Shown here one piece after another: positions 4,293-27,243 of a DNA stretch of 30,898 nucleotides. Each line of letters starts with the position of its first letter. The stretch's first letter is position 1. The notes under the pieces were generated by a model that was not told the origin of the DNA, did not search any database, and saw nothing but the letters and a program-made list of their open reading frames with translations. The translations under genes and the position numbers were made by a program. The stretch covers positions 1-30,898 of the forward strand of contig JAZLIC010000099.1 of assembly GCA_045617225.1 (NCBI GenBank), written 5' to 3'. Source of the stretch: Clostridia bacterium (GTDB taxonomy: Bacteria > Bacillota > Clostridia > Monoglobales > Monoglobaceae).

Positions 4293-4415
4293 TTTGAATA
4301 TTTATTACGGATTTTGCGAAAAACAAATTTTTACATTGCGGTCAGTAGCGGCAGACCGAAACAGGGCTTGGACGATTATTAAGAAAAATTTGTTTTTCGC
4401 ACCTTTCTGTCTGCC
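4293..4415 (+). repeat. Structured intergenic element, copy A (REP/ERIC/MITE-like repeat or ncRNA)
   Basis: Perfect 18-bp outer inverted repeat TGCGAAAAACAAATTTTT / AAAAATTTGTTTTTCGCA encloses an inner hairpin CGGTC-agtagcggca-GACCG. Aligns end to end with the reverse complement of 10418-10538. Confidence 0.85.
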
Positions 4416-4469
4416 TAAACGCATCTTTATATAAATTTTCAAAAAAATGCAAAAACCTTTGAAAAAGTG

Positions 4470-9086: not shown

Positions 9087-10249
9087 ACTCAAAAAACCCT
9101 TGGGGAATTTTAACAGGCATACGCCCTGCAAAGCTTGCTACCAAGCTACTTTGTGAGGGTGCAGATGACAATGCGGTCTTAAACTACTTCATCAAAGAAT
9201 GTGTCACAACGGAAAGCAAGGCGAGGCTTGCCCTGAATGTTGCCAAGACTGAAATGCCTATCCGAAAAAGTATATATGATGACGGCGTCAGCCTTTATAT
9301 CGGTATCCCATTCTGTCCCACAAGATGCCTTTATTGCTCATTCGTCACAAATGGTACAAAACAGGCGGCAAAGCTGATACCTGAGTATGTAGAATGCCTG
9401 AAAAAAGAAATCACATATACTGCTGAAATTATAAAGAATAACAGACAAAGGATTGAAACCGTATATATAGGCGGCGGCACCCCCACAACTCTTACGCCCG
9501 GTCAGCTTGCAGATTTGCTCCGCCACGTATGGGACAGCTTTGACTTATCTTATATAAAAGAGTTCACGGTTGAGGCAGGGCGTCCCGATACCATTACGGC
9601 AGAGAAGCTTGCAGTCCTTAAAGATTTTAAGGTTGACCGCATCAGTATAAATCCGCAGACAATGCACGATACAACCCTTCATACAATCGGAAGGGCGCAT
9701 AGTGCAGAGCAGATAAAAGATGCGGTTGTACTTGCAAAAGAGTATGACTTTAAGGCGATAAATATGGATATAATCGCAGGTCTGCCCGGAGAAGATTTGG
9801 AGATGTTTAAATCTACTCTAAGGCAGGTGTGTGACTTAAATCCCGAAAATATAACCGTTCATACCATGAGTATAAAACGCTCCTCTAAGCTTCATGAGGA
9901 TTTGGTAAACTATGACTTAACACAAGGTGAAACCGTGGCACAGATGGTTGACTTTGCGGCAAGCTATTTAGAGGAAAGGGGACTTTACCCCTACTACCTC
10001 TACCGTCAAAAAAACCAACTCGGCAATTTAGAAAATGTAGGCTATGCGAAGGACGGTTTAGAGGGACTTTATAATATCTATATTATGGAGGAAATCCAGA
10101 CTATTATCTCGTTAGGTTGCGGCGGCGTAACCAAAACCGTCGACAGGGAAACCGACCGAATAGAGCGAATATTTAATGTAAAAGAACCAAAGGATTATAT
10201 AGAACGTTTGGACGAAATGCTACACAGGAAAGATATACTGAGAGCGTAA
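9071..10249 (+). CDS. hemZ: HemZ/HemN-like radical SAM protein; start codon uncertain (non-canonical or ATG 9254)
   Basis: YIGIPFCPTRCLYCSF (CxxxCxxC), YIGGGTPT, EAGRPDT, YYLYRQKN. The frame is open from 9053 and encodes PWGILTGIRPAK at 9098-9133, upstream of the first ATG. Confidence 0.88.
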   Translation: MSDILNSKNPWGILTGIRPAKLATKLLCEGADDNAVLNYFIKECVTTESKARLALNVAKTEMPIRKSIYDDGVSLYIGIPFCPTRCLYCSFVTNGTKQAAKLIPEYVECLKKEITYTAEIIKNNRQRIETVYIGGGTPTTLTPGQLADLLRHVWDSFDLSYIKEFTVEAGRPDTITAEKLAVLKDFKVDRISINPQTMHDTTLHTIGRAHSAEQIKDAVVLAKEYDFKAINMDIIAGLPGEDLEMFKSTLRQVCDLNPENITVHTMSIKRSSKLHEDLVNYDLTQGETVAQMVDFAASYLEERGLYPYYLYRQKNQLGNLENVGYAKDGLEGLYNIYIMEEIQTIISLGCGGVTKTVDRETDRIERIFNVKEPKDYIERLDEMLHRKDILRA

Positions 10250-10417
10250 AATGAGTTCAAAATCCATACGAAAACAATCTAAATACGCTTTTATTTAAGT
10301 TTTTTTGCAATTAGAAAATTTTTAAATTGCCCAAACGGAATCTTGGGTCCGTTAAAGCGTGTCCGAATTACTATCGAATGGCTAATTTGGGATACGCAAA
10401 AGTGCCAATTCCCCGCA

Positions 10418-10538
10418 GGCATACGGGAAATGCGAAAAACAAATTTTCTGAATTATCGCCCAAGCCCTGTTCCGACCTGCCGCTCCCGGTCGGCAATGTA
10501 AAATTTGTTTTTCACGAGAGTCGTAATAAATCTTCAAA
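10418..10538 (-). repeat. Structured intergenic element, copy B
   Basis: Reverse complement matches copy A along its length. Outer stem GTGAAAAACAAATTTT / AAAATTTGTTTTTCGC; inner hairpin CCGACC-gggagcggca-GGTCGG. Confidence 0.85.
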
Positions 10539-10554
10539 CTATATTCTGCACACA

Positions 10555-10585
10555 AAAAGAGGCTTCCGAGCAGGAAGCCTCTTTT
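10555..10585. terminator. Intrinsic terminator after rpoC, probably bidirectional
   Basis: AAAAGAGGCTTCC-gagca-GGAAGCCTCTTTT, a perfect 13-bp inverted repeat with T tracts on both strands, between convergent hemZ and rpoC. Confidence 0.88.
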
Positions 10586-26414: not shown

Positions 26415-26468
26415 ATGTGGGCTGTTTAAAAAGTCCAAAACAAATTTTTGAATTTGCATTACTTATTA

Positions 26469-26506
26469 ACAAAGAGCGACCATATATGGCCGCCCTTTGT
26501 CTTTTT
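26469..26506. terminator. Intrinsic terminator between convergent bofA and gatD
   Basis: Minus strand ACAAAGGGCGGCCAT-at-ATGGTCGCTCTTTGT (two G-U pairs); T tract CTTTTT on the plus strand. Confidence 0.75.
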
Positions 26507-26511
26507 ATTGT

Positions 26512-27243
26512 TTATTTTTCGCAAAATCTTTCTATTATGCTATGATTTGCAAGTGCTTCAAGCTCGTCATTAAGGGGTGCAAGATATCCAAAGCCATCAT
26601 ACTTTCTATTCATTGCACGTGTCAAGATAAAGTCACAAAGCTCCGGATTTTTAGGGAGCAGAGGCCCATATAAATAAGTTGCAATCACATTCTTATAAAG
26701 TACACCCTCATATCCGCCGTCACCCATATTTCCACCGCCGCAGATAACCTTGCCAAGTGGTGTATGCTCGCCGATAAAGGTTTGACTCCGGTGATTTTCA
26801 AAGCCTACGATTTTACTGCTAAAATCATCATTTTCCAAAACAACATTTCCGCTTAAACGCTTTTTGCCCGGCTCGGTATATATATTAAGGATATCAAGAG
26901 CCTGAACTGTCTTATCCCCTGTTTTATAGTATCTGCCGAGCATAGGATAGCCGCCGCAGGTTGCAATAAGAGCGCCGCCGCTTTCCACATATTTTTTAAA
27001 TTCTTCCTTTTGGGGCATAAGTTGATTCAGAGCTATCTCCTCTTCGCTTTCATCGCCGCCGCCCAGGAAAATTATATCCGCATTTTCTAAATCAAGTGTC
27101 GGATTTTCCATTGTACATTCAATCACATTTGCCTGAATTCCGCGCCATTCAAGGCGTTTTTTAAGGGCATAGATATTCCCTTTATCGCCGTAAAGGTTTA
27201 AAATATCAGGATAAAGATGTATAATATTAAGCTCTTGCATCAT
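26512..27243 (-). CDS. gatD: GatD (CobQ-like class I glutamine amidotransferase subunit) with degenerate active site
   Basis: LYPDILNLYGDKGN, FLGGG, CGGY, GFENH, GPLLPKNP. Overlaps the end of murT. Catalytic His position reads Tyr. Confidence 0.9.
   Translation of the reverse strand: MMQELNIIHLYPDILNLYGDKGNIYALKKRLEWRGIQANVIECTMENPTLDLENADIIFLGGGDESEEEIALNQLMPQKEEFKKYVESGGALIATCGGYPMLGRYYKTGDKTVQALDILNIYTEPGKKRLSGNVVLENDDFSSKIVGFENHRSQTFIGEHTPLGKVICGGGNMGDGGYEGVLYKNVIATYLYGPLLPKNPELCDFILTRAMNRKYDGFGYLAPLNDELEALANHSIIERFCEK

Follow-up and report, generated by a model that had tools for sequence, protein, structure and literature searches.

A dispersed hairpin repeat with a conserved core inside a shape-only outer stem in genomes of uncultured Clostridia

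Copies A and B in the analysed window

The window (the whole stretch of DNA that was analysed, 30,898 nt) carries two hairpin-forming repeats, copy A at mutS2 and copy B at rpoC, which are mutually inverted and lie 6 kb apart on either side of a recJ-rel-hemZ block. The following features were identified at the two sites.

4293 to 4315, + strand: left flank of copy A (TTTGAAnATTTATTACG...), outside the common unit and seen in the flank listing of copies only in the subfamily of A, B, C144 and C40
4316 to 4400, + strand: copy A, whole unit of the ~85-nt hairpin repeat (covariance-model match of 97.6 bits, E 1e-19; also an nhmmer match)
4316 to 4332, + strand: 5' arm of the outer stem (P1) of copy A, GCGAAAAACAAATTTTT, forming 17 bp with 4384-4400 (sequence and single-sequence fold)
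4339 to 4358, + strand: inner hairpin (P3) of copy A, CGGTC - AGTAGCGGCA - GACCG (stem covariation among copies)
4384 to 4400, + strand: 3' arm of P1 of copy A, AAAAATTTGTTTTTCGC (sequence and single-sequence fold)
4401 to 4428, + strand: degenerate start of a ~330-nt neighbouring repeat behind copy A, with TGCC at 4412-4415 (8-locus alignment)
10290 to 10431, - strand: shortened copy of this separate ~330-nt repeat, holding the 'terminal TGCC' discussed below (8-locus alignment; blastn-short census, 7 copies)
10432 to 10515, - strand: copy B, whole unit of the hairpin repeat (covariance-model match of 101.7 bits, E 1e-20)
10432 to 10447, - strand: 3' arm of P1 of copy B, AAAATTTGTTTTTCGC (sequence and single-sequence fold)
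10472 to 10493, - strand: P3 of copy B, CCGACC - GGGAGCGGCA - GGTCGG (sequence; stem covariation among copies)
10500 to 10515, - strand: 5' arm of P1 of copy B, GTGAAAAACAAATTTT, with a T·G wobble at position 2 (sequence and single-sequence fold)
10516 to 10538, - strand: copy B equivalent of the subfamily-specific left flank (flank listing of copies)
10551 to 10584, - strand: terminator-like rpoC hairpin, AAAGAGGCTTCC-TGCTC-GGAAGCCTCTTT followed by a T run, between the rpoC stop codon and copy B (read from the sequence)

The regions containing A (+ strand, 4293-4415) and B (- strand, 10418-10538) were found to align end to end as the initial annotation had described, and ACATTG, AGCGGCA and AACAGGGCTTGG are the same in both. 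The outer stem is longer than had been noted, at 17 bp in A and 16 bp in B, and the differences reported for it were correctly read, one A-T pair having been lost from B as a pair and a T·G wobble added. The inner stem, CGGTC/GACCG in A and CCGACC/GGTCGG in B, retains its pairing through two fully compensated pairs and gains one additional closing pair in B. Single-sequence folds gave -31.1 kcal/mol (z -2.8) for A and -32.8 kcal/mol (z -1.8) for B.

The element had been described as ~122 nt long. However, the extent shared by all copies is only ~85 nt (4316-4400 and 10432-10515), and the remainder of 4293-4415 consists of neighbouring subfamily-specific repeats. The similarity between A and B outside the unit is due to these neighbours, as the left flank is present in four copies and the ~330-nt repeat lies behind six. 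The terminal TGCC, which had been taken for a conserved part of the element, sits in the neighbouring repeat that is found beside 6-7 copies only, and was kept in three of the seven copies of that repeat.

The rpoC hairpin precedes copy B, which is therefore situated beyond it; this hairpin is visible by eye and was not listed by a simple terminator scanner. A promoter-like site was sought at copies A and B and found at neither. The radical-SAM HemZ-like ORF at 9254-10249 (+ strand) encodes 331 aa from the first ATG, compared with ~364-418 aa in most homologues; the actual start could be further upstream, or the gene could be a shortened one. In a relative with an 87%-identical hemZ, the next gene is an AraC gene and not rpoC, and the hemZ-rpoC arrangement seen at copy B is thus not a conserved one. 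Strain-level empty sites for A and B were not obtainable, the adjoining HemZ protein being recorded only for the genome that contains the window.

Copy number, structure and distribution of the repeat

The genome containing the window (G000) is a 1.37-Mb MAG of 155 contigs with 41% GC, and is 86% complete. A BLAST search of this genome using copy A gave 30 strong places, and iterated nhmmer recovered 29 full copies, together with degenerate ones, on 24 contigs. The description of a two-copy element was thus superseded, as nhmmer and the covariance model together give at least 29 full copies in this genome in addition to truncated ones, and solo-arm remnants were also found. All 29 full copies are intergenic, though the genome is 90% coding by a crude ORF tiling. 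About half of them lie no more than 100 nt past a stop codon, and some are at contig ends, as for assembly-breaking repeats.

The unit of ~78-90 nt consists of a ~52-nt core with the GC-rich hairpin P3, enclosed by the AT-rich outer stem P1 of 15-19 bp (independent single-sequence folds gave an outer helix averaging 15.2 bp). The core, with the consensus ACATTGCC-G.CC / GGG...GGCA / GG.CGG-AAC.GGG..GGCRAT.ATTCA, is near-invariant in sequence across genera, whereas the P1 columns are nearly information-free. P1 is unrelated between subfamilies (e.g. GCGAAAAACAAATTTTT, ATCCGAAATAATTTTT, AAAAGTATAAAATATT, GCTAAAAACAGC and TCGGCAAGATATTG) but always forms a near-perfect inverted repeat. Several P1 types occur with one core type inside a single genome, and one P1 type was also found with different cores.

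Among 28 aligned copies from the window's genome, P1 is 91.5% and P3 92.5% paired. Two P3 pairs alternate between A-U/C-G (16 copies) and G-C/U-A (11-12 copies), and a third alternates among C-G, U-A and U-G. The loop GGGAGCGGCA and the segment AAC.GGGCTTGGGC are almost invariant in these copies, and ~10 nt ahead of the 3' arm vary freely. In a wider alignment of 105 copies from 30 genomes, which was fitted to the covariance model and with which per-sequence folds and raw sequences agree, 95.2% of cells were paired compared with 64.4% in shuffles. Changes on both sides were seen in all 16 P1 pairs and in five of the six P3 pairs (21 of 22 pairs), and P3 pair 29-59 was distributed almost evenly (GC 26, UA 26, AU 25, CG 23), bearing out the original proposal that the structure is under selection. 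An all-against-all mutual-information scan recovered P1 and P3 only, with no P2 and no pseudoknot, and the pseudoknot that had been suggested between the loop and TGCC was not upheld, as the loop has no covarying partner. A candidate P2 helix, ATTG/CRAT, was rejected, being 66% paired without real covariation.

Of 121 genomes from the same bacterial family (Monoglobus/Ructibacterium kin), 34 were found with the covariance model to carry the element; these belong to 6 of 14 genera, with between 1 and 36 copies in each carrier genome and hundreds over the 34 genomes. The distribution by genus is patchy, with carriers making up 18 of 21 genomes in g4, 7 of 17 in g7, 6 of 24 in g10 and 0 of 33 in g12. 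No copy was detected in 30 genomes that represent six other families in the order. The exact core pattern was present only in records of uncultured Clostridia, 'Monoglobus sp.' and rumen RUG MAGs, and relatives of the MutS2 and HemZ proteins of the window come from uncultured Clostridia, Ructibacterium, Ornithomonoglobus, 'Monoglobus sp.' and rumen RUG MAGs. The core pattern was not found in viral contigs, and a full copy had no match in plasmid and phage collections.

The initial annotation could not match the element to a named family, and this still holds: a search of the whole window against Rfam 15 at the gathering score gave no hit, and ten copies (A and nine from several subfamilies) searched on both strands at E<=10 gave chance-level hits only. 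No description of this hairpin repeat family was found in the literature searched. The element was absent from all 80 mutS2 loci examined in relatives, and the genes that recur beside it belong only to ordinary families (BspA LRR, AraC, Tex), with no recurring transposase. A role for the repeat as a dedicated regulator of mutS2 or rpoC is not supported.

Associated repeats, candidate mobilisers and gain and loss

The genome of the window also contains a REP family of the classical GTAG type (GTAGGGGCGnCCCTGTGTGGnCGCCCG; 26-31 copies, e.g. G000 C84:1350-1379, C35:8843-8872 and C146:5481-5510) and a second REP family (GTAGGGCAGGGGCTTGCTCCTGCC) with about 10 copies. A REP directly adjoins P1 with zero gap in 5 of the 29 hairpin copies, and lies <=30 nt away in 6 of the 29, where 1.1 were expected (maximum of 4 in 300 trials). 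REPs are nested within the element at C143, C149 and C40. Inverted doublets, in which units of two different subfamilies are separated by a spacer of ~15 nt, recur in G003, G079, G021, G009 and G016 and are REPIN-like.

Several further repeats were recorded beside these. Weak P1-arm remnants (26437-26449 and 26511-26528) lie on either side of a REP-like terminator hairpin in the window (26469-26500), and this region may be a third, REP-disrupted copy like those at C143 and C149. Tandem arrays of an exact 26-nt REP are present in G048, with six at 42-nt spacing (C21:44583-44909) and three at 275-nt spacing (C15:40684-41259). The ~330-nt repeat is non-coding, occurs in 6-7 copies and is located directly behind the hairpin unit in six; the copy in the window is without ~190 nt of the middle, and full copies are found at G000 C144:17674-17960, C119:5036-5330, C54:3973-4270 and C74:6239-6520. 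It contains two internal hairpins (GGCACTTTTG...CAAAAGTACC and GCAGGGG-AGCGAC-CCCCTGC), and gave chance-level hits only against Rfam at E<=10. A short repeat, GCATAAAGATTTCGTTCTAAATCCCCTCCGTC, was found at 13 places in G000 (e.g. C26:9619-9654 and C84:1466-1501), immediately behind the hairpin element in about 8 copies and alone in others.

A link to RAYT or IS200 genes, which had been put forward as something to look for, was searched for and fails as a simple rule, and none of the searches for a transposase turned up a mobilising enzyme. RAYT-like genes do not track the element, as 21 genomes carry both, 13 (including G016 and G003) carry only the element and 32 carry only RAYT. The ends of IS200-like genes are unlike the element. 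Y1_Tnp was not found in G003, G134 or G135, of which G003 (98% complete) carries 36 little-diverged copies of the element with no Y1 transposase; the absence of a transposase weighs little, as MAGs often miss multi-copy IS elements. IS110 showed no correlation with the element over five genomes, the search of G003 giving only a single match, located in a 1433-aa open frame, that scored 20.6 bits and fell short of the cut-off of 29. A search for IS91 was silent in all control genomes and is uninformative.

The RAYT-like Y1 transposase gene (G000:C76:10662-11150, the same as L202:1342-1833; also G006:C1:130913-131404) was found to contain the REP of its own genome twice within the ORF, in frame, in inverted orientation and flanking the HUH motif on both sides. 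The REPs within the ORF in the window's genome encode IVGATLCGRP and KTGDHTGSPL. In G006, the 26-mer within the ORF (GTAGGGGACGGCGCCCTCGACGTCCC) is an exact REP with 64 occurrences in G006, 55 in G018 and 50 in G048, compared with 0 for the reversed control. RAYT homologues from other genera align gap-free at these positions, indicating that (I/V)VG, encoded by GTAGGG, and PLQ, encoded by CCCTACAG, are conserved codons. The REP papers examined place REPs on the flanks of RAYT genes, and a description of REPs within a RAYT ORF was not found in them.

Gain and loss of the hairpin element was apparent between close species. G048 carries at least 32 copies, whereas the covariance model found 0 copies in G006 and G018, which are 88-97% identical in the flanking genes; in G018, a single stretch of 82% identity was picked up by blastn. 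At five orthologous intergenic regions, the length is 31-55 nt in the species with empty sites and 160-490 nt in G048. The surplus DNA in G048 follows the stop codon, precedes the terminator and combines GTAG-type REPs, whole and partial copies of the element and other repeats in a mosaic. In the cleanest filled/empty pair, a 160-nt unit seems to have taken the place of a 45-nt segment with a REP, which does not resemble a simple insertion, and no clean single-unit insertion junction was recovered among the filled/empty pairs compared. Within genus g4, no empty sites could be read at the DNA level, as the flanks are too diverged.

A hypervariable slot between a stop codon and a conserved terminator was also observed in these species (G048:C13:34198-34359, G018:C10:30668-30715 and G006:C6:75650-75792), where flanks that are 93-97% identical enclose different repeat cargo in each of the three.

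Interpretation and comparison with known systems

The repeat is dispersed, patchily distributed, and gained and lost, and acts at the DNA level. Of the two options in the initial annotation, that of a mobile ERIC/RUP/REP-like family agrees with the multi-copy, patchy and intergenic occurrence and the gain and loss between close species, whereas that of a functional motif in the form of a discrete RNA of mutS2 or rpoC does not fit the empty mutS2 loci, the lack of orientation bias or the lack of a clear wobble asymmetry. The favoured reading is a previously undescribed, mobile hairpin repeat family with no named match, and it is probable that A and B are two of about thirty copies of a new small non-autonomous selfish DNA repeat of the REP/BIME/ERIC kind.

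We infer a single-stranded DNA intermediate and recognition of the core by an enzyme. The unit would fold into a hairpin once the DNA is single-stranded, and a trans-acting enzyme would recognise the clamp formed by P1 by its shape and the core by its sequence. The unit, often with neighbour modules such as GTAG-type REPs, would then be copied without target-site duplication, landing between a stop codon and a terminator or the next gene. If amplification occurred only from masters with an intact hairpin, with single copies decaying afterwards, this would account for the pairing of P1 and P3 being kept between subfamilies.

That unpaired core positions are near-invariant across genera could be explained just as well by a function for the host. 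A structured RNA module that serves the host was also considered; it might stabilise 3' UTRs, be processed by RNase III or act as a small RNA. In such a module P1 would be a sequence-independent dsRNA clamp, the core would bind protein or RNA and the multiple copies would be incidental. The strong covariation of P1 and P3 together with the conserved core would be consistent with such a module, as would the many copies situated 18-100 nt behind a stop codon; those in G048 lie ahead of the terminator and would be transcribed. Of the two strands, the sense strand gave the better fold in 89 of 105 copies, and the G·T wobbles kept on the 'sense' strand across several genomes in one subfamily (TCGGCAAG.../...CTTGCTGA) would suit an RNA. 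However, G·T to A·C mismatches numbered 27:15 in P1 and 12:13 in P3 (32:18 by a second method), far below the excess in true RNAs.

A location in sense just downstream of a gene, as noted for A and B, is not the rule among the copies. In tandem intergenic regions 6 copies are oriented with the genes and 6 against, and among copies <100 nt from a gene 3' end 10 are sense and 5 antisense, indicating no preference, while inverted doublets make one unit antisense by construction. The position of copy B past the rpoC terminator, the lack of promoter-like sites at A and B, the absence of conserved context, of an Rfam family and of any further covarying pairs or pseudoknot, the lack of the element at 80 mutS2 loci and in near-identical sister species also argue against an RNA module, which is an unlikely, though not negligible, explanation.

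It is conceivable, if speculative, that the element is the substrate of an undescribed mobilisation system. The sequence-free AT-rich clamp and the 52-nt core would be recognised by an enzyme that reads structure, or perhaps by replication or repair functions of the host, and the unit would be copied with no target duplication and independently of RAYT, IS200, IS110 and IS91; alternatively, the core itself may be a nucleic-acid motif with catalytic activity or one that recruits a protein.

A classical MITE, a deletion derivative of a DDE-type IS in which the transposase would bind the terminal inverted repeats, appears doubtful. Units of ~85 nt that are multi-copy and intergenic, with AT-rich ends and 15-19-bp terminal inverted repeats in nearly every copy, resemble MITEs, as do the truncated copies and solo arms. 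However, the target-site duplications that the initial annotation had proposed to look for were not seen, as flanking direct repeats of 3-9 nt were not above control in 104 copies, 2-nt flank matches were not clearly above control and the flank is not TA. The inverted repeats are also the least conserved part and the interior the most conserved, the reverse of a MITE, and the flanks hold neither a recurring transposase nor a longer element with the same ends, within the limits set by MAG incompleteness.

Equally doubtful is a host chromosomal double-stranded DNA site bound by a protein with a role in the nucleoid, replication or segregation, and homogenised in each genome by gene conversion. 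The alignments reveal two similar GGG-N3-GGCA motifs ~two helical turns apart in the core, and the lack of strand bias would fit such a site, but complementarity kept through sequence change points to a folded single strand and not to half-sites. Close species with no copies or nearly none, a copy number ranging from 1 to 36 and the tolerance of truncated and REP-disrupted copies also do not agree with this role. Finally, A and B could be an incidental two-copy hairpin, or could form the inverted ends of a composite transposon around the recJ-rel-hemZ block, for which their inverted arrangement 6 kb apart would be suitable. Neither can hold as the only explanation given the copy census, with at least 29 copies on 24 contigs and hundreds of copies in 34 genomes, and the outer flanks carry no duplication.

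REP, ERIC and BIME palindromic repeats have been known for forty years, and how most of them move is still unclear. The hairpin family described here provides an unusually clean split between a core kept as sequence and a clamp kept as shape, with hundreds of natural variants, and includes sister species, 88-97% identical in the compared flanks, that contrast in having at most one degenerate copy or more than 30. Recognition by the enzyme could therefore be approached using comparative genomics and binding or cleavage assays. In practical terms, assemblies of these gut and rumen MAGs are interrupted at the repeat, and its copies should not be labelled as a riboswitch or small RNA of mutS2 or rpoC.

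The ERIC/IRU, RUP, BOX, Correia/NEMIS and bcr1 repeats are long imperfect palindromes of ~100 nt, with an unknown or indirect mobiliser, that are often co-transcribed in 3' UTRs. The family resembles these as a long intergenic hairpin repeat of similar size but shares no sequence similarity with them, and is confined to a single family of uncultured Clostridia. It lacks the TA duplications and the conserved inverted repeats that characterise Correia and RUP. Integron attC sites, which are 57-141 nt with a long stem that is conserved in structure and free in sequence, are thought to act as folded single-stranded DNA. They are similar to the present unit in length and in the character of the stem. 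However, R''/R' core sites (RYYYAAC / GTTRRRY) are not found at the stem ends of the unit, the interior is conserved, and the copies do not form same-orientation cassette arrays but are dispersed beside housekeeping genes.

The Y1 enzymes of IS200/IS605 read a hairpin and adjacent conserved single-stranded bases and insert without duplication (Quentin et al. 2018, PMC6006769), and both IS200/IS605 and palindrome-associated transposable elements carry a pair of subterminal hairpins in like orientation and are without a terminal inverted repeat (PMC6006769). A hairpin with conserved neighbouring bases and no duplication is shared with the IS200/IS605 ends, but the family has no likeness to the ends of Y1 genes in these genomes, and Y1 is missing from some genomes with high copy numbers.

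REPs, REPINs and BIMEs are, respectively, repetitive extragenic palindromes, their inverted doublets and mosaic clusters (Bertels & Rainey 2011, PMC3116915; Di Nocera et al. 2013, PMC3733652). Like these, the family is multi-copy, intergenic, mostly downstream of genes and hairpin-forming, with no target-site duplication, with a stem sequence that differs by lineage while pairing is kept, and with both singletons and inverted doublets. As in BIMEs, it forms mosaics with other repeats in the G048 regions, and it adjoins genuine GTAG-type REPs. It differs from REPs in that the unit is about 85 nt (78-90 nt) and not 20-40 nt, has no GTAG or CGTC tag at either end, and contains an asymmetric conserved 52-nt interior with its own hairpin inside a sequence-free clamp, and in that its presence does not track RAYT genes. 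The hairpin family therefore lacks the defining characters of a MITE, of a REP proper, of attC and of any Rfam family; in its behaviour it is closest to a REP/BIME-type module, from which it is distinguished by a conserved core inside a shape-only clamp.
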